IMG/VR virus record: IMGVR_UViG_3300032607_001790 | Length of the DNA: 20,000 nucleotides | Reading direction: 5' to 3' (one strand) | Source: an uncultured virus (IMG/VR IMGVR_UViG_3300032607_001790) | Lineage: Duplodnaviria; Heunggongvirae; Uroviricota; Caudoviricetes | In this document: positions 7,519 to 17,619 of the stretch, piece by piece | How positions within the stretch are numbered: position 1 is the first letter of the stretch | Layout: every line of letters begins with the position of its first letter | The notes under the pieces: model-generated | What the model was told of the DNA's origin: nothing | Seen by the model: only the letters and a program-made list of their open reading frames with translations | The model's database searches: none | Position numbers and translations under genes: made by a program

Positions 7519-9480
7519 TTAAAAGAACTCTTCCACTACTTCTGTCACTTCCTTCTCTTCTATATCAGGGCCAGCCCATTCTGCTGCTTCATAATCCCAC
7601 GAATGGTAAAGCCTAGTTTTTTCTCCATTGGGACCAGTTTGAAAGCTACTGGTAACTAAGCCTTGACGGCGAGCCACTTCCAGCATCTTGCCTGCAGTAG
7701 ATAGCTCCACGCCTGCCAGCATTGACACCTCAAGCCTGGTAAAGCGCTGGTTCTTACGACGCTTCACAGCACCAACACATTGCTCCAGCTCGTTCAAAGA
7801 GCCGCTTAATGGCCCTGCATAATGCCAGCCATAGTTCAATGAATCGCGTTGCAGCATATGCTTTCCAGTGAGGCCGCTTCTGCTTTTCGTCCATTCAAAA
7901 TGGAACTGGTTTGGATCACCACAATTATCAGGACGAGTAAGCTTCACCACTTCGCTCACATTATCAACAAAGCTGCTTGAATCCCTGGTGCCACCGCTTT
8001 TGTTTAAATGGTGTAAAATGCAAATGCTAACTTTATATTTATTTGCAATATCACGAAGGCCATAAATTACATCGCCCGCATTGCTACGAACTAAATCAAC
8101 TTCCATGCCTGCAAGGCAAGCCGTTAATGAATCAATGGCAACAAATAAAGGGCGATTTTTCCTTACGTATTCTTCTAATTGATTTATGTGGCCAAAACGC
8201 CAATTCTCCCAAAAGGCAATAGTGCCTTCTTCTAATCCTGCTTCCCTATAACCAATAACGTTTAGCTTTTCGCTGGTATCAACTAATGGCTCATCCGATT
8301 GAATGATCAAGCTTTTTCCTTTCATGCATCGTCTGCCGCTCCATTCTTGCCCTAATGCAACATTTAATGCCCAGTTATAAATTAAAGTTGACTTACCCGT
8401 GCCGCCTGATGCAGCAAGCAACATTACGCTTCCTAATGGCATGATACCTGCAATCAACCATTCCCTGCATTCTTCAGAATTTGCAATGGTAAGCGCATCA
8501 ATTGTTTCAATTTCTTCACGGCCATAAATGCGATATTTTGCATCTTCAATAATTTTATCAATATTCTGTTGACTCATCTTTATGCCACGTTGCTCTAACC
8601 ATGATGTAAATTCATAAACAGTGCGGGCATCATTGGCGTAAAGCCCAACAAAATTTTCAATGGTGGCAATAATTTCTTCATAAGATGGCTTACCGTCTTG
8701 CCCTTTATGACGGCTAGTTGTAATTGAAGCTAATAAATCATCCTTATCAACACCTTCTGCAATGTAATCAGCTAGGTCTAATCCGTTGCCACTAGGAAGA
8801 TTCCGCCATTCCCATGATTTAGGATCTGCATATAACCATTGAGCACCAGGATTATCAGTTTCAATTTCACGCATAAATGCCACACCTTGCTCATCACGAT
8901 CAGGCGCAAGCACTAACTTATGCTGCTTAAATAATTGTGAATAATCACCATTAGTACGGTATTGTTTGCTGCCACCAAGGAAAGTAACTGATGGTAAACC
9001 AATACTCCACACTGCATCACAAGTAAGTTCACCTTCTACGATTACTATTGGCAATCCACTTTCTTTGCTAAATTTAATCGCTTCATTGTATTTATAAGGC
9101 AGTATCCCGGCTTTTATTTCTTGTAATTGCACCTTATGGCTGGGGAGGGTGTTGTCAATGGTTGGGAAATTTTGCCAAATGCGCTTAGTGCCGCTGGTGT
9201 CATCACGATGCACCACCACCACTTCAGTGCCCGTTTTATCGAAATAAGGAAATGAATACGATTGCGCAATACGAGGAGGCTTTTCCCATCGCACCATTGG
9301 AGCAAGTTTGTCGCGGATTTCCGCTCTGTGAGCCGGGCTCGGATCGTTGAAACAGGAGTAGGCACCATTGGTTTTATTTATCGAAAAGTCGTTGCCACCA
9401 CAGGCCGGGCAGATGAATTTGCTTTTATCCTCTTTACTGCTGGTTAGCTGGTCTAAGTGATCAAGAATCGAAAACGTCAT
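7519..9480 (-). CDS. primase-helicase (Zn-binding, TOPRIM, AAA_25/RepA-type helicase, C-terminal HTH)
   Basis: CPACGG...YSCF; VEGE...APDRDEQG; Walker A AASGGTGKST; Walker B VAIDSL; LHHLNK. Confidence 0.9.
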   Translation of the reverse strand: MTFSILDHLDQLTSSKEDKSKFICPACGGNDFSINKTNGAYSCFNDPSPAHRAEIRDKLAPMVRWEKPPRIAQSYSFPYFDKTGTEVVVVHRDDTSGTKRIWQNFPTIDNTLPSHKVQLQEIKAGILPYKYNEAIKFSKESGLPIVIVEGELTCDAVWSIGLPSVTFLGGSKQYRTNGDYSQLFKQHKLVLAPDRDEQGVAFMREIETDNPGAQWLYADPKSWEWRNLPSGNGLDLADYIAEGVDKDDLLASITTSRHKGQDGKPSYEEIIATIENFVGLYANDARTVYEFTSWLEQRGIKMSQQNIDKIIEDAKYRIYGREEIETIDALTIANSEECREWLIAGIMPLGSVMLLAASGGTGKSTLIYNWALNVALGQEWSGRRCMKGKSLIIQSDEPLVDTSEKLNVIGYREAGLEEGTIAFWENWRFGHINQLEEYVRKNRPLFVAIDSLTACLAGMEVDLVRSNAGDVIYGLRDIANKYKVSICILHHLNKSGGTRDSSSFVDNVSEVVKLTRPDNCGDPNQFHFEWTKSRSGLTGKHMLQRDSLNYGWHYAGPLSGSLNELEQCVGAVKRRKNQRFTRLEVSMLAGVELSTAGKMLEVARRQGLVTSSFQTGPNGEKTRLYHSWDYEAAEWAGPDIEEKEVTEVVEEFF

Positions 9481-9544
9481 TCGGTGCAAGGAATTGCATC
9501 CACCATCATTACAGCAATATCACCAGCTTGCAAGGCATTGTGGG

Positions 9545-9849: not shown

Positions 9850-10097
9850 CAATCCACGAATTGATTACAGCTCTCACTGCCGCCACTCAAACAGTGCCTC
9901 AAGACACTGAAGTGCTACTGAGTTTTGAACCAAATGCCATGAAAGAAGGCTTTGATTGGGAACACGTTGAGACCATTTCTGACGTGAGAGTTTGCCCCCA
10001 CTGGCCCCTACCTGGTAACAGCGTAGTAATTCAAGAAACTGAAATACCATCAAAAGTTATTTTGTTTTACGACCTTTGTGATAATTGCTACGAATGA
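9846..10097 (+). CDS. hypothetical protein
   Basis: ATGA overlaps at both ends. Confidence 0.75.
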   Translation: MTIHELITALTAATQTVPQDTEVLLSFEPNAMKEGFDWEHVETISDVRVCPHWPLPGNSVVIQETEIPSKVILFYDLCDNCYE

Positions 10098-11044
10098 CTA
10101 ATTCTTCTTCTTATTTTCTTTACGATTCCAAATTCATGCAATCACCTGCTGCTGCTTCTATGTCTGATCGAATGAATGGCATCTTTTCTCCTTTAGAGAT
10201 TAGCCCTGCTGCTTTTACCACTGCTTATGAGCTTGCCATTGGCGAACACGTTGAGAAGAATTACAAAGGGCTTTCGTACCTTTCGTGGCCGTTTGCTTTT
10301 CGTTACCTCAAAGAACAGTTCCCTACGCTGTTTGTAGCATTTGAAGAAATCACAATGGGATGGCCAGTATTTGGTCAAACTGGCTGCTGGTTATTGCGTC
10401 CATATCTAACTGATGGATGCCGTCGTACTCCAGCGTTGGTATTTCCCATTATGGACAACAGACATAATGCAGTGAAAGAACTTGATGCTCGTCAAGTAAG
10501 CGACAATATCCAACGAGCAAGCGTTAAATGTATTGCAACTTTTACTGGTTTAGGGCTCAAGCTTTATTCTGGTGAAGATATCCCCACGAGTGATGAAAAA
10601 GAACCTGCCAAACTCCCGCTGCAACAGGAAAGCACGAAGTCTGCTGCGAGGCCAGACACGACGCAAGCACCAGCTACGGAAGCTGCTGCAACACCTGGAG
10701 CAACAGGGATTCCTGCCGCCAGTGGTAGTGAATTTAATGGCAAGGAAGCACTTCTTGGATTCTGTAAGGCCAACCCTTTCGATTATCCACAAGAACGCAA
10801 CAGCATGATGGCTGGCAAAAAAGCGCTTGAAAACTTGGGACTATCAAAAGGTGATGATATTAAAGATGTAGAGATGTTTGGTAATGTTGTTACTACTATG
10901 GTTACAGAATGGATTAAAGAAAAAGAAATAAAGATATCAAAAGCTGCAATGGTTACTGAAATCAAAGCGCTTCGTGAAGCATGTTCTGTATCAACAGAGC
11001 AAGCATTAAAGGAGGTGGAGGCGTTTGTTGCGGGAAAGCAATAA
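10094..11044 (+). CDS. sak: Sak/DUF1071 ssDNA annealing protein
   Basis: VEK..KGLSYLSW..A...PIMDNRHNAV...QRASVKCIA..GLGLKLYSGEDIP; Ala/Pro/Thr linker and helical C-terminal domain. Confidence 0.85.
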   Translation: MTNSSSYFLYDSKFMQSPAAASMSDRMNGIFSPLEISPAAFTTAYELAIGEHVEKNYKGLSYLSWPFAFRYLKEQFPTLFVAFEEITMGWPVFGQTGCWLLRPYLTDGCRRTPALVFPIMDNRHNAVKELDARQVSDNIQRASVKCIATFTGLGLKLYSGEDIPTSDEKEPAKLPLQQESTKSAARPDTTQAPATEAAATPGATGIPAASGSEFNGKEALLGFCKANPFDYPQERNSMMAGKKALENLGLSKGDDIKDVEMFGNVVTTMVTEWIKEKEIKISKAAMVTEIKALREACSVSTEQALKEVEAFVAGKQ

Positions 11045-11133
11045 ATCTAGTGGTGGCCCGTTTTTCGCGGGCCTTTACTGGAGCTTATGCCTTAAATGAT
11101 GATGGTTCCCTTCTTTCCCTTGAAACATTATGA
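11017..11133 (+). other. putative -1 programmed ribosomal frameshift signal and extension frame
   Basis: GGAGG 11017-11021; G GGA AAG 11032-11038; stem-loop 11046-11082; -1 frame open to TGA 11131-11133. Confidence 0.65.
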
Positions 11134-11387
11134 CAAGAGCTGAACTTCAACGAATGATCAAAAGGCTAAACGAAGCAAGTGTATCTTGTTTTGAATGTGG
11201 AGCTAAATACGGCATATATAGTGTTGGATGTTCATCAGTATGGCAAGGTAAATGTCATATTTGTGGCCGCACAACAGGAATTACTGAAGCAAGAGATTTT
11301 GCTTATTTTGTAACTGGTTTACGGCAATTACATTTACAATTAGCAGCTATTCCTAAAGATAAAAAAAAGGTTCCGTTTAATGAATAA
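11130..11387 (+). CDS. small zinc-finger hypothetical protein
   Basis: CFEC...CHIC; TEARDFAY. Confidence 0.75.
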   Translation: MTRAELQRMIKRLNEASVSCFECGAKYGIYSVGCSSVWQGKCHICGRTTGITEARDFAYFVTGLRQLHLQLAAIPKDKKKVPFNE

Positions 11388-12147
11388 TATGCTTGCTCGT
11401 TATGAGCCCAACCGCATTTCTCTTAATGGCAAAAGGCACTACCAGATCAGCCAGTTCCCGAATGTTCCAGAAGGTATGCTGCTGCCTTCTGTCACCACTG
11501 TGCTGTCTTCCATGGCACCAGTTGGCAAGATCATGGCCTTGATTAACTGGCGGAAGCGAGTGGGAAATGAAGAGGCAAATCGTCGCACCAGGCTTGCTGC
11601 TGATCGTGGCACCTGGATGCATGGTGTAATAGAAGATTTATTCAATGGCGAAGATATTGAACATCATTTGGAACGCAAGCCAGAATGGCAGCCATATTTC
11701 AATGCCATTGAACCCTTCCTTGAATTAATTGACAAGCCATTATTAGCTGAAAGCGCAGTGGCCTGGTGGAACGAAGAAGAGAAAATGGGCTACTCTGGAA
11801 CGTTGGACCAATTGGCCCTAATGGCAGACGGCTCTATTGCATTGATGGATTGGAAAACCAGTTATAAGATTAAACCAGATTATCAACTTGCAGATTACAA
11901 AAAACAATTAGGCGCGTATAGCTTGGCTGCCGAATCAATGTATGGCATCGATGTTGAAGCTGCATATTGCGTGATCAGCGTATACGACCCTGAAGAATCT
12001 AGTAGAGAAGCGGAACTACAAATATTGCATATGGATGGCTTTGAGCTGGTGCAGCAGCAGTCCGTTATGCAGGACACTCTTAAGAGATATTTCAACCAGT
12101 TCTACCCAGGCGGAAAAGCATTTGCATTAACCATGGATAAGGGGTAA
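11380..12147 (+). CDS. PD-(D/E)XK exonuclease (RecB/lambda-exo-like)
   Basis: LPSVTTVLS, RGTWMH, YSGTLD, DWKTS, QLGAY. Confidence 0.9.
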   Translation: MNNMLARYEPNRISLNGKRHYQISQFPNVPEGMLLPSVTTVLSSMAPVGKIMALINWRKRVGNEEANRRTRLAADRGTWMHGVIEDLFNGEDIEHHLERKPEWQPYFNAIEPFLELIDKPLLAESAVAWWNEEEKMGYSGTLDQLALMADGSIALMDWKTSYKIKPDYQLADYKKQLGAYSLAAESMYGIDVEAAYCVISVYDPEESSREAELQILHMDGFELVQQQSVMQDTLKRYFNQFYPGGKAFALTMDKG

Positions 12148-12150: not shown

Positions 12151-12196
12151 AAGCGAGCCCTAAACAAGGGCTCCATTACTCCCCGGAGAAACACTC

Positions 12197-12445
12197 ATGG
12201 CTAACAGGCCCCCAATCACCGCTGCAATCGACCTAACTCCTGAAGTGCTTAATGCATTGAAGAAAGCTGGTCCCAATGAGCGCGGTAACTATTCGCTTGA
12301 TATGGCCGTATGGGTGAACGAAAAGCGCACTTCTGACAAAGCCCCCAACTTGACGGGCAGTGTCAAAGTTAAAGGCGATAAAGATGGCCCTAAAGGCTAT
12401 GCCAGTGTGTGGCAAAATGACGTTGAAACCAACGACGTTTTCTAA
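12197..12445 (+). CDS. small ssDNA-binding protein (DUF736-like)
   Basis: AVW.NEKRTSDKAPNLTGSVKV; acidic-aromatic tail NDVF; recombination-module context. Confidence 0.65.
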   Translation: MANRPPITAAIDLTPEVLNALKKAGPNERGNYSLDMAVWVNEKRTSDKAPNLTGSVKVKGDKDGPKGYASVWQNDVETNDVF

Positions 12446-12448
12446 ACC

Positions 12449-12628
12449 ATGAAGACTACTGCCATCGTTTTAGTTATCATTATTTTTGCTGGCTTAAGCG
12501 CGGTGGTAGCTTGTTTAGCCGCTTGGGCATTGACTGCCATCTGGCCGTCTTTGCCCTTTTGGCCTGTTGCTACTCTGGCTTGGCTTACTGCTGGTGTTTT
12601 TAGTCGTTCCTCTGCATCTTCATCATGA
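12449..12628 (+). CDS. 59-aa membrane protein (MKTTAIVLVIIIFAGLSAVVACLAAWALTAIWPSLPFWPV...)
   Basis: Translated by hand; two hydrophobic segments; ATGA overlap with dcd. Confidence 0.75.
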   Translation: MKTTAIVLVIIIFAGLSAVVACLAAWALTAIWPSLPFWPVATLAWLTAGVFSRSSASSS

Positions 12629-13224
12629 CCCTGCTTAATGATAAACAAATCAGCCAATTAGCTGAAAATGACATCTTTCTGCCATTCATTGGCGAAAAAC
12701 GACGCACCCTTGACAATGGCACAAAAGCAATTTCTTACGGTTTATCACAATCAGGTTATGACATCCGATTGTCTTCTGTTGAATTTTTAGTTTATGAACC
12801 TGAATTTACAACAGAAAATTTTTTTGATGGTCCAATAGTTGATCCCAAAAACTATCAAGCTAATGTTATTGTTGCAACTTTAGAAGAGCAAGAAGATGGC
12901 TCATGTTATTTCATTCTTCCTCCTAATACTTATGCATTAGGTACAAGTCTTGAATTAATATCAATGCCCAATAATGTATTTGCTTTATGTGAAGGAAAAT
13001 CTACTTATGGTCGCTGTGGTCTTATTGCTAATATTCTTCCCATTGAACCTGGGTGGATTGGCCATTTAACAATGTGCCTAATAAATCCCACAGAAACTCC
13101 TATCCGTGTTTATGCAAATGAAGGGATTGCTCAACTTGTGCTTTTTGGCATTGATGAAACCAGCAAACCATATGAAGGCATTTACCAGAAGCAATCGTCT
13201 AGGGTACAATTCGCTGCAGTTTAA
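12625..13224 (+). CDS. dcd: dCTP deaminase / trimeric dUTPase family protein
   Basis: ISYGLSQSGYDIRL, GKSTYGRCGL, IEPGW.G.LT, YANEGIAQLVLF; catalytic Glu appears replaced by Cys. Confidence 0.85.
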   Translation: MTLLNDKQISQLAENDIFLPFIGEKRRTLDNGTKAISYGLSQSGYDIRLSSVEFLVYEPEFTTENFFDGPIVDPKNYQANVIVATLEEQEDGSCYFILPPNTYALGTSLELISMPNNVFALCEGKSTYGRCGLIANILPIEPGWIGHLTMCLINPTETPIRVYANEGIAQLVLFGIDETSKPYEGIYQKQSSRVQFAAV

Positions 13225-14461: not shown

Positions 14462-14697
14462 CTTACGCTCCTTCGCTTTCTAGCCTCTTAGATGATGTTG
14501 CCATGTGTGCCATGGTACAGCTCATCCATTCGTATGAACCAGACGAAAGCTCAGGCGAAGAATACCCCACGGAGAAATGGTGCGAAGATATTGCTCGCAC
14601 CTCCTACTACATGGCTGCGGCCATGATGGAGGCTCGTTCTTCTTTTCATACTTTTCTTCTTGAAGGTAACAATGGGGAAAAGGAAGTTGAAGCTTGA
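14458..14697 (+). CDS. phage hypothetical protein
   Basis: D.AM.AM..L...IARTSY.MA.AMMEAR pattern. Confidence 0.75.
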   Translation: MTYAPSLSSLLDDVAMCAMVQLIHSYEPDESSGEEYPTEKWCEDIARTSYYMAAAMMEARSSFHTFLLEGNNGEKEVEA

Positions 14698-15388
14698 TCC
14701 TCTTAACGATGGCAAAAGTTCTTTATGTTTAGTTGATTCAATGGGAAATAGCTTGTCTGTGGTTAATGATGCTCGGCAATCTTTTGATTCCGAAAGTATT
14801 GAATGGACAGAACGTGATGGTAAGCTGTTGCGTTATTTGGCAAAACATAACCATACTTCTCCTTTTCGTGGAGTGGTATTTAAATGGGCAATTAAAGCAC
14901 CATTATTTGTCGCAAGGCAATGGTGGAAACATACAGTGGCATCTACTTATGTTGATGATCAATTGGGCTGGAACGAAAAAAGCTTTCGTTATTGCACAGC
15001 AGAAGAAGCTGAATTTTATGTGCCATGGGAATTTGCTAGGCAAAGCGAAAGCAATCGCCAAGCTTCTGCAGGCCCACTAGATAGCAAAAACCAGCAGTTG
15101 GCGCTTAGGCAATATATCGTTGCCTTGGAGTCGTCTAAGCAAGCCTATGAAGCATTGTTATTGATTGGTGTGAGCAAAGAGCAAGCCAGAGCAATCCTGC
15201 CCGCTGCGCTGTATACCAGTTTCGTTTGGACCTGTAGTTTACATGCACTATTCCATTTCATTTCATTACGAAAAGGCCATGGTGCTCAAGGTGAAATCAT
15301 GGCTTACGCTGAAGCATTATTAACGCTTGGCTGTCAAGTTGCTCCTGAAGCCTTTGATGCCTTTGCTGAAAACAACTATCAATTTTAA
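14672..15388 (+). CDS. thyX: FAD-dependent thymidylate synthase ThyX (start uncertain)
   Basis: VVNDARQSF, H.SPF, APLFVARQWWKH, WNEKSFRY, EQARAILP, SLHALFHFISLR...AQ.EI. Confidence 0.93.
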   Translation: MGKRKLKLDPLNDGKSSLCLVDSMGNSLSVVNDARQSFDSESIEWTERDGKLLRYLAKHNHTSPFRGVVFKWAIKAPLFVARQWWKHTVASTYVDDQLGWNEKSFRYCTAEEAEFYVPWEFARQSESNRQASAGPLDSKNQQLALRQYIVALESSKQAYEALLLIGVSKEQARAILPAALYTSFVWTCSLHALFHFISLRKGHGAQGEIMAYAEALLTLGCQVAPEAFDAFAENNYQF

Positions 15389-15714: not shown

Positions 15715-16194
15715 TCAGGCCGTTTGCCATTGCCCCATAGGAAATGGAAGGATTGGCATATCTTTTTCATGCAGTGGCAATGCTCGTTGTGTCGCTTCAC
15801 ACCAAGCTTCCCAGTCTGATAAATCAGTATGCGCACTAACAAAACTATTATTATAAATCCAACTCATTAATATCTCTTCGCGAGATTGTGACCAGAAACG
15901 TTGAGGACGCCACCATTCAAATAATGGTGAATTGCCCTTACTTGCATTGCAATTTAAACAGGAAGGAGTATTGTTCCATTTTGCGAAGTGTGGTCCTCCT
16001 TTGCTCTTTGGTATGATGTGATCAATAGTTAATTTCTCAGTCCATTTCCCGCAATAAGCGCAAGCACAATGTCCTAATGGTCCTTTCGTTGGGAAATCTT
16101 CAAAAATGCTCTTTCGATATCGACGTTTTGCATCACCAGGACGTAGTTCAGAAAGCGAATGGAGGAGTTCTTCAGGCCCATTGCTTATCCCCAT
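15715..16194 (-). CDS. HNH endonuclease
   Basis: CAYCG...LTIDHIIPKSKGG...N..PSCLNCNASKG; start moved to ATG 16194. Confidence 0.88.
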   Translation of the reverse strand: MGISNGPEELLHSLSELRPGDAKRRYRKSIFEDFPTKGPLGHCACAYCGKWTEKLTIDHIIPKSKGGPHFAKWNNTPSCLNCNASKGNSPLFEWWRPQRFWSQSREEILMSWIYNNSFVSAHTDLSDWEAWCEATQRALPLHEKDMPILPFPMGQWQTA

Positions 16195-16284
16195 GGTGAT
16201 ATTTGCTTGGCTTGTTTTAAGCTTAAAGCCTAATTTAATTGATAGTGGAAGTTGTAGAATGAATAAAAGGATTGATTTATTATC

Positions 16285-16494
16285 ATGAAAGACTGGCAGG
16301 CAAAACTTGCGGATTTTGCGGTGGTGCTTACTGCCGGGATGCTTCTTGCCACTGGCAGCATGATGATGAGCGTAGGACATCAGCAGGTGAAAATCACCAC
16401 TCAAGTGGAAAATATCACGGAAAAGCTTGATGTATTAACCGAAAGCATGAAAGGATTAGAAGAACGTGTGCGTTCTCTAGAAATAAAGCGCTAA
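16285..16494 (+). CDS. TM plus coiled-coil protein (holin/lysis accessory-like)
   Basis: N-terminal TM; C-terminal LEERVRSLE; located upstream of the endolysin. Confidence 0.65.
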   Translation: MKDWQAKLADFAVVLTAGMLLATGSMMMSVGHQQVKITTQVENITEKLDVLTESMKGLEERVRSLEIKR

Positions 16495-16519: not shown

Positions 16520-16663
16520 ATGGAACCAATTCAATGGTTTATTATTGGTGGCATCCTTGTTGCTGCTGCAGACCAAATTCTTGACAATTCCCCATGGAAA
16601 AGCAACAACATTTTGCAATTGATCATGGATACGCTTAAGACTTTCTTTCGCGCTAGCAAGTGA
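16520..16663 (+). CDS. 47-aa holin-like membrane protein (MEPIQWFIIGGILVAAADQILDNSPWKSNNILQLIMDTLKTFFRASK)
   Basis: Translated by hand; TM plus KSNN.LQL; GTGA overlap with the endolysin. Confidence 0.7.
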   Translation: MEPIQWFIIGGILVAAADQILDNSPWKSNNILQLIMDTLKTFFRASK

Positions 16664-17619
16664 CTACTGTTGCCAACACTTGGCAAGGTGTTAGCCTCTA
16701 CTCTCAAAAGGTAGGGGCTAAATTTCCTGATTTAGTAGCAGCTCAATGGGCAGTGGAAAGTGGCTTTGGGAAGCACTTCTCTGGTGCAAATAATCCATTT
16801 GGCCTTAAAGGGCATGGAACAAAACGTACCACGCAAGAATGGTACGATGGTCAATGGGTAACAATTCAAGACGGCTTTATTGATTTCCCTAGCTTAGCTG
16901 TTGCCATTGATTATTTAGTTAAACATTGGTATAAGGATTGGCAATCATATAAAGGAATAAATAGAGCAGCTAATCGTTACGCCGCTGCTCGTATGCTAAA
17001 AGAACAAGGTTATGCTACTGATCCTGATTATCCGGTGAAGCTATCAAAATTAATGAAGGAATATGCCCCTGAAACTGCTACTCCCATTGAGCCTAAAATT
17101 ATGACACTCGTCGGACCCAAGAAACGCCCTCAAGATTTTGGTTTTAAAGCTGGTGATCATCATTTAGTAGTGAATGATGCCAATGAAACCATGAAAGCTT
17201 TTTCTTTTAGTGGAACGCTTCTATGGCAAATTCCTTGCTTAGCTCGTGGGCAATATTCAGATAAAGAATGGACGATTACTAATTCTGACACTCCCGTAGG
17301 TTTATATCGCATTGGTGCTATTTATCGTGATTATGAAAACGCAGGAGATAATCCTGCATATGATCGCACTTTAATGAGTTATGGCTGGTATAGCTTAGAT
17401 ATGGTAGAACTAGAGAATCAAGAAGCAAAACATGGCAGGGCTGGAATTATGATTCATTCGGGAGGTTCTCAATGCGGTTGGCCTGGGGCATGGGCACCAA
17501 ATCAGCAATTGTTCCCTACATATGGATGCGTACGTTGTAAAAACATTGATCTGCGTGATAAAATTGTACCATTAACTAAAACTGGAGCAATATTTGTTAG
17601 TGTTTACCAAGAAATATGA
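16660..17619 (+). CDS. endolysin: GH73 glucosaminidase plus YkuD L,D-transpeptidase-like domain
   Basis: AQWAVESGFG, NNPFGLK, GYATDP.Y; C-terminal TPVGLYRIG...IMIHSGG...TYGCVR. Confidence 0.85.
   Translation: MTTVANTWQGVSLYSQKVGAKFPDLVAAQWAVESGFGKHFSGANNPFGLKGHGTKRTTQEWYDGQWVTIQDGFIDFPSLAVAIDYLVKHWYKDWQSYKGINRAANRYAAARMLKEQGYATDPDYPVKLSKLMKEYAPETATPIEPKIMTLVGPKKRPQDFGFKAGDHHLVVNDANETMKAFSFSGTLLWQIPCLARGQYSDKEWTITNSDTPVGLYRIGAIYRDYENAGDNPAYDRTLMSYGWYSLDMVELENQEAKHGRAGIMIHSGGSQCGWPGAWAPNQQLFPTYGCVRCKNIDLRDKIVPLTKTGAIFVSVYQEI

Follow-up and report, generated by a model that had tools for sequence, protein, structure and literature searches.

The 3' end of the sak gene of an uncultured member of the Caudoviricetes (IMG/VR record IMGVR_UViG_3300032607_001790) raises the question of whether the gene is read to one end or to two, and what the peptide added in the second case would do. 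The gene was analyzed within a stretch of 20,000 nucleotides, hereafter the window. A preliminary description of this DNA had proposed that a -1 frameshift close to the stop codon gives two Sak isoforms, which would differ by a tail of 31 aa.

The open reading frame (10136..11044, + strand) encodes 302 aa from the ATG at 10136, or 316 aa from the ATG at 10094. Its product matched PF06378 with 62.1 bits (Pfam cut-off 22.3) and phrog_8492 with an E-value of 6e-46 (PHROG). The structure model, which was built from 28 sequences and had a mean pLDDT of 75, was divided by pLDDT and DSSP into a Rad52-like domain (residues ~25-165), a disordered linker (~155-197) and a helical C-terminal domain (~200-302). 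The Rad52-like domain superimposed on the Sak protein of phage 80alpha (8qe9) with a VIA Z of 12.8 and an rmsd of 2.5 over 123 aligned residues, and a Foldseek comparison of the model with 80alpha Sak gave an E-value of 3e-5. The helical C-terminal domain, which was not folded alone, gave only middling helical matches with a Z of at most 6.9. By profile and by its Rad52-like fold, the gene product is a Sak annealase; by analogy with the family, it would form an oligomeric ring and anneal DNA strands.

The genome to which the window belongs has 69,463 bases and is complete by its terminal repeats. No detectable match to PolA, PolB, PolC or DnaX was present in this complete genome, and no PolA, PolB or PolC was found in five of five near-complete relatives. 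PHROG matches in the window comprised a helicase (277-2283, - strand), a primase/helicase-type AAA protein (7519-9489, -), a dCTP deaminase (12625-13224, +), a thymidylate synthase (14660-15388, +), an HNH endonuclease (15715-16404, -) and an endolysin (16660-17619, +), and judged by this gene content the window is a replication module without a polymerase. An ORF of 82 aa (12197-12445, +), which is directly preceded by a hairpin (12155-12173) and follows the exonuclease gene described below, had no Pfam or PHROG match; it ends in acidic residues and a terminal Phe, which we take to resemble the tail of a single-stranded DNA-binding protein (SSB). Among 50,697 annotated phage records, the only full-length relative of Sak was that of Synechococcus phage S-CBS4 (58% identity), and the gene order of S-CBS4 and the window is the same through the exonuclease and the dCTP deaminase. 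Since S-CBS4 is the only annotated full-length relative and shares this gene order, the host is probably a picocyanobacterium.

The elements on which the proposed frameshift was based were confirmed in the sequence. The slippery heptamer G GGA AAG (11032-11038, +) stands in X XXY YYZ phase and is followed by one further codon and the TAA stop of the short form (11042-11044, +). The -1 frame (11038..11133, +) adds 31 codons beyond the Lys before it ends at a TGA (11131-11133) that overlaps the ATG at 11130. An SD-like GGAGG (11017-11021, +) lies 10 nt upstream of the heptamer, and the stem-loop at 11046-11082 (+), the likely stimulator of frameshifting, begins after a 7-nt spacer and folds as claimed. 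A second GGAGGT is located at 11011-11016 (+). The segment 11005-11135 had a folding z-score of -3.06, with none of 200 shuffles as stable, and the z-score of the 60 nt after the heptamer was -5.8. G GGA AAG is also the site used by lambda gpG/gpGT. Both G GGA AAG and the related A AAA AAG are named as highly shift-prone in E. coli in the available text of PMC5009743.

The last 12 codons of all 135 ATG-initiated ORFs of at least 60 aa in the genome were scanned for such cassettes, and sak alone ended in G GGA AAG or A AAA AAG combined with an open -1 frame of at least 20 codons. Three other heptamer matches occurred in the genome, in two short ORFs, and the folds beside them had energies of -9.6 to -12.3 kcal/mol versus -24.1 kcal/mol at sak. 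Among ATG-ORFs of at least 60 aa close to a 1867-aa tape-measure-like gene, no X XXY YYZ site with a 20-codon extension was observed near the ORF ends, so that a tail-chaperone frameshift would be either absent or of another type. Contigs assembled from three public runs of relatives covered all 30 bins of positions 10000-11500, and no indel at the heptamer was present among the indels listed for them (12 of 13).

Relatives of the locus were collected from four contig scans and from S-CBS4, which yielded 229 loci in addition to the window; nine were cut before the 3' end and left out, and the rest represented 110 distinct ends. Their Sak proteins were 47-100% identical to that of the window. 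Both the heptamer and the open -1 frame, whose conservation the preliminary description had proposed to examine by aligning related sak 3' ends, were kept in 107 of the 110, although these counts overstate independence because the sequences are related. The heptamer was G GGA AAG in 69 ends and A AAA AAG in 38, in phase and one to two codons before the stop, and the -1 frame was open for 25-45 codons in all 107, each matching the tail profile in that frame. In the cultured phage S-CBS4 the heptamer is A AAA AAG; the same tail follows it and is unannotated. In one exception (L227) the cassette is present beyond an internal frame break, and another (L229) is a distant Sak that lacks this C-terminal domain. 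In L132 (2290-2520), the 3' end of sak from approximately residue 283 is swapped for unrelated coding sequence, which points to a chimeric assembly or a recombinant. L029, which has the cassette, contains seven extra codons between heptamer and motif. Within 61 sak genes, slippery coding was used at none of 118 internal Gly-Lys pairs and none of 23 internal Lys-Lys pairs, and at 61 of 61 gene ends. On a 56-row tree that was built without the last four residues, the heptamer class changed 10 times, with at least five changes forced by starred branches. As the class switches repeatedly while a slippery site stays, selection preserves slipperiness rather than one sequence.

The alignment of 60 ends, from which L029 was omitted on account of its insertion, showed a switch at the heptamer: the codon position that varies most is that of the 0 frame before it and that of the -1 frame after it. 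Among single-base changes, 67% were synonymous in the -1 frame, 24% in the 0 frame and 9% in the +1 frame, and stops broke the frame in 1, 30 and 44 of the 60 loci, respectively. In 42 disjoint close pairs, third-position changes of the -1 frame numbered 110 versus 38 and 29 at the other positions, and the ratio of synonymous to non-synonymous changes was 91:59 in the -1 frame, 26:131 in the 0 frame and 23:137 in the +1 frame. Past the hairpin this ratio was 41:40 in the -1 frame, with 58 third-position changes versus 26 and 19. A Gly in the tail is invariant (107/107), and the Phe that precedes it is present in 102 of 107. The -1 frame peptide, the conservation of which the preliminary description had named as a check, is thus conserved, and coding selection starts at the shift site. 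Comparative sequence evidence thereby strongly supports the two proposed isoforms, and we conclude that a programmed -1 frameshift very probably gives a second, longer form of Sak. Stop readthrough and a +1 shift were considered and rejected, as the 0 and +1 frames are frequently broken and their changes are mostly non-synonymous. Transcriptional slippage was rejected because G GGA AAG (69/107) contains no long run.

An in-frame fusion of Sak and tail was not found in the best 120 of 138 homologs (166-529 aa), nor among longer proteins, where the absence is weak evidence. A search of 1.84 billion representatives with the tail profile returned 35 matches; none of the 11 examined was a fused form, nine of them representing the -1 frame called as a short ORF and the other two being repeat proteins. 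Annotation by gene callers treats the -1 frame as a small gene of its own (P0124-P0144), and among these database ORFs P0134, P0137 and P0143 represent the same tail from relatives outside the locus set.

The putative stimulators were kept to different degrees. Of 60 ends, 48 had a hairpin with a z-score below -2 in the first 60 nt downstream of the heptamer. In the commonest stem, 78.1% of cells were paired, versus 39-47% in slid controls, and the covariation that the preliminary description had named as a check was recovered, with 70 cells changed on both sides versus 28.6 in shuffles, an excess that is inflated by kinship. The position of the stem apex differs between clades (63, 17, 11 and 12 loci) and the peptide is retained in them; because the apex shifts and the peptide stays, the constraints on stem and peptide are not by-products of one another. 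A search of Rfam gave no match. GGAGG was found 5-14 nt upstream of the heptamer in only 34 of 107 loci, 32 of the 69 with G GGA AAG and 2 of the 38 with A AAA AAG, and is therefore likely an accessory stimulator that is absent as a family feature. The preliminary description had recognized a complete dnaX layout, which holds for the window and does not extend to the family. The SD-like element overlaps Val-Glu codons, and in the G GGA AAG class the Glu is encoded there by GAG 36 times and by GAA 9 times, compared to 908 and 1426 inside sak, counts that are again taken from related sequences. A weak 3' stem was observed in 14 of 107 loci. Most of these, largely from one clade, have GGAGG (10/14: L008, L044, L046, L049, L056, L127, L133, L138, L151 and L029), versus 23 of 58 strong-stem G GGA AAG loci. 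A trade-off between stem strength and SD is possible.

The tail consists of an amphipathic helix, a Phe-x-Gly, a hydrophobic strand and an acidic patch. A comparable motif was found in cyanobacterial DnaX. The DnaX set comprised 120 cyanobacterial-type proteins retrieved with a Gloeothece query, the named members of which are not picocyanobacteria, the probable hosts; the motif was defined from 85 non-redundant C-terminal 200-mers, without the use of the tail profile. The disordered tail of these proteins contains a single conserved motif, a helix followed by Phe-x-Gly-Glu-Ile, with ~15 informative columns. The tail profile aligned to it over 23 columns with an hhalign probability of 95 and a score of 29.3; 100 column shuffles scored at most 17.6 with a probability of at most 57, and 34 windows from Sak scored at most 12.8. 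In the reverse direction, the tail was the best match of the motif in 90 of 107 loci, and 59 of the 107 tails were found at E < 0.05 at genome search size (six-frame segments), the best with 24.5 bits and an E-value of 2e-6. The tail profile landed on the same motif in most of the 120 DnaX proteins.

The tail of the window itself scored -0.7 bits against the motif, tied lowest of the 107 (best domain -2.5 bits), and was outside the top 10 of the 2683 six-frame segments of its genome. Together with L001, L002, L004, L006, L009, L072, L073 and L075, the window forms a starred 9-row clade that has the most divergent tails, with Val-Val and Tyr at positions where most have Ala-Ala and Ile/Leu/Val. 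A host DnaE of another kind or a switch of partner may lie behind this drift. At the level of sequence, the tail thus resembles the conserved C-terminal motif of cyanobacterial DnaX as a family, and the window tail alone does not.

The motif and the tail can be placed, weakly, in register with the alpha-binding segment of E. coli tau. In this register, the Leu/Phe of the tail, the Phe at +4 and the hydrophobic residue at +8 fall on L627, F631 and L635 of tau, and a Gly at +6 and acidic residues after +8 are shared by the tail and the DnaX motif. Mutation of L627, F631 and L635 costs 5.4, 3.8 and 1.7 kcal/mol of alpha binding, respectively, and the affinity of a 32-mer tau peptide for E. coli alpha is only 3.8 uM (PMC1888804, available sections); the tau residues that bear on alpha binding are also treated in the accessible part of PMC11470591, and the tau-binding domain of alpha corresponds to residues 1079-1160 according to that of PMC4703070. 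As far as the available text of PMC1888804 goes, the alpha-binding function of the segment is proven only in E. coli. An HMM of the cyanobacterial DnaX motif gave no match to E. coli tau. Against an alignment of E. coli tau with C-termini from the phylum of genome G001, the motif reached an hhalign probability of only 46 in the L627/F631/L635 register, so that its equivalence to E. coli residues 624-636 is tentative, and the tail profile reached only 4.6. Among 1.84 billion representatives the tail profile found no DnaX at E <= 0.001, and searches of the tail against Pfam, NCBIfam, PDB, ESM Atlas and annotated phages returned nothing meaningful. No host dnaX was found in the IMG/VR scan and no cyanobacterial dnaE on plasmids. 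Four of four plasmid-borne DnaX (L231-L234) were short (428-478 codons) and by eye had no C-terminal motif, and their plasmids had no dnaE match; by their sequences they are gamma-like clamp loaders.

From these comparisons a mechanism can be proposed. A share of ribosomes would slip by -1 at the heptamer, aided by the stem and, in the window, by the SD, and the slip would swap the last residue for the 31-residue tail, giving forms of 302 and 332 residues (316 and 346 from the upstream ATG). Short and long subunits would mix in Sak oligomers, in line with what is generally known of Rad52-family rings, and each oligomer would carry a few tails. If the cyanobacterial DnaX motif is an alpha-binding segment like its E. 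coli equivalent, the tail could dock on the tau-binding domain of the alpha subunit of host DNA polymerase III and bring the host polymerase to 3' ends annealed by Sak. Recombination would thereby be coupled to the restart of replication or to the formation of concatemers. How many polymerase handles an oligomer carries would be set by the frameshift, which would also restrain a class of peptide that is toxic when freely expressed in E. coli; such rationing would have a reason, as free tau domain V is lethal in this organism. Sak is needed for replication and concatemers of phage 80alpha, as stated in the accessible text of PMC5499656. The absence of polymerase genes is weak support for docking, because many phages have no polymerase, and since the tails of the window clade have drifted furthest from the motif, the steps of alpha binding and polymerase recruitment rest on the family. 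We rate the whole chain, from frameshift to tail to docking on Pol III alpha at annealed ends, as slightly better than even. In its more specific form, that S-CBS4-like cyanophages stud their annealase with dosed tau-mimic tails that capture Pol III alpha and pass 3' ends to the replicase, the proposal is tentative and falls a little short of even.

The resemblance to DnaX could also be a convergence of short amphipathic helices with a Phe-x-Gly motif, in which case the frameshift would be real and the tail would bind another partner, such as the phage exonuclease, an SSB-like protein, the primase/helicase, RecA or the C-terminal domain of Sak itself. Annealase C-termini commonly bind SSB or exonuclease, 98 of 107 loci have an exonuclease gene no more than 1.5 kb downstream, the window tail alone is not recognizably tau-like and the motif offers few informative columns. 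Against these points stand the match of the profiles, which is far above shuffles and natural helical controls, the bit score of the best tails and the recurrence of the same motif in most DnaX proteins. We consider binding of a different partner unlikely, with some weight left to it. It is decidedly unlikely that the tail has the same target and the opposite aim, competing with tau for alpha and thereby shutting down host replication. The DnaX evidence fits such sequestration as well as it fits docking, and E. coli is killed by low-level expression of tau domain V, presumably because alpha is sequestered (PMC1888804, available sections). However, the tail is tethered to the annealase in 107 of 107 loci, 76 of which have no start codon from which the tail could be made alone; as a pure inhibitor needs no tether, this attachment counts against sequestration, and the phage itself depends on the host polymerase.

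In the window, the TGA of the -1 frame forms an ATGA overlap with an 85-aa Cys-rich ORF (11130..11387, +) without PHROG or Pfam match, which is followed by a PD-(D/E)XK exonuclease gene (11380..12147, +; phrog_298, E 1e-45), likely the partner of the annealase. From this arrangement it had been suggested that the frameshift gates the translation of the downstream Zn-finger and exonuclease genes. Delivery of ribosomes to the next gene as the main purpose, with the tail incidental, is nevertheless improbable. The ATGA overlap is found in 43 of 107 loci and, with ATG as the only start considered, an other-frame ORF starting between -8 and +30 nt of the 0-frame stop in none of 107, so the -1 stop acts as the gene end to which the next gene is spaced. 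The gene directly next is however a Zn-finger in only 8 and the exonuclease in only 9 of 107 loci, elsewhere being small membrane or other ORFs, and because it varies gating would be at most a side effect. The peptide itself is selected, as seen in its conserved Gly and Phe and in the synonymous excess past the hairpin, and coupling as the purpose is accordingly a weak claim. The Cys-rich ORF is the next gene in eight members of the 9-row clade of the window.

It is very improbable that translation of the -1 frame starts independently, as a small gene in its own right. An in-frame ATG does occur 17 codons upstream in the window (10981), and gene callers call such ORFs, but from the preceding -1 stop to the fourth codon the 76 loci mentioned above contain no ATG, GTG or TTG, and in 5 of 107 a -1 stop stands immediately ahead of the heptamer, which together make a separate gene unlikely; upstream of the heptamer the -1 frame has no protein-type conservation. 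A reading without recoding, in which the hairpin terminates transcription or marks an RNA-processing site and the open frame is a by-product, is hardly credible and already largely refuted: the stem stands right after the stop, as terminators do, but a terminator scan did not call it, it has no U-tract (only 3 of 107 loci have at least five T among the 8 nt that follow the paired stem), and such a reading leaves unexplained the heptamer, the phase switch and the retention of the peptide beside differing stems.

With the programmed frameshift as the preferred reading, the cassette can be set beside known systems. It shares with E. coli dnaX the heptamers, the 3' stem-loop, in the window an SD within the 9-14 nt spacing reported for stimulation of -1 frameshifting, and two predicted products that differ in a tau-type C-terminal segment (PMC5009743, available text). 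In contrast to dnaX, the shift lengthens the protein rather than truncating it, the gene is a phage annealase and the SD is confined to a third of the loci; a reversed arrangement has been predicted for dnaX of a few bacteria (PMC5009743, same text). As in lambda gpG/gpGT and in Ig-like extensions of capsid and tail proteins, a -1 shift near the gene end would yield a minority form with a C-terminal adaptor (PMC5009743, same text). Unlike gpG/gpGT, sak is a recombination gene in a replication module, the added part is a 31-residue motif instead of a domain, and the gene does not precede the tape-measure gene, as the tape-measure-like ORF lies ~37 kb away on the other strand. With the Sak annealases of PF06378, such as those of 80alpha and lactococcal phages, it has in common the Rad52-like N-terminal domain and the link to an exonuclease, and it differs from them in its lineage-specific helical C-terminal domain and its frameshift tail. 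The tail is similar to the alpha-binding segment of tau in its helix, Leu/Phe, Phe at +4, Gly at +6, hydrophobic residue at +8 and acidic residues; unlike tau, it has no domain V core and sits on an annealase, its window copy is divergent, and the profile link between the cyanobacterial motif and E. coli is weak.

Known phage frameshifts, as far as the accessible literature describes them, are mostly located in tail-chaperone, capsid and tail genes. Neither a frameshift in a phage annealase nor a tau-like annealase tail was found in the literature, mainly open-access papers without their supplements, which agrees with the earlier remark that programmed frameshifting is not known to have been described for phage annealing proteins. 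The word frameshift does not occur in the available part of the 80alpha Sak paper (PMC5499656), nor do recombinase and anneal in those of PMC10885494 and bioRxiv 10.1101/2025.10.02.679949. The recoding mechanism itself is textbook, and its apparent use on an annealase with a tau-like tail would be new.

A conserved frameshift in an annealase would add a new class of genes to those recoded in this way, one that is unannotated even in the cultured S-CBS4 and is therefore directly testable. Should the tail bind Pol III alpha, a molecular link would be at hand by which annealases could drive the switch to recombination-dependent, concatemer-forming replication when a phage relies on the polymerase of its host. 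The same binding would indicate where the alpha-binding segment of cyanobacterial tau lies and offer natural peptide variants aimed at the tau-alpha interface. The tail would then represent a viral tether between annealase and polymerase that is built by recoding, and a new route of takeover for a phage without a polymerase.
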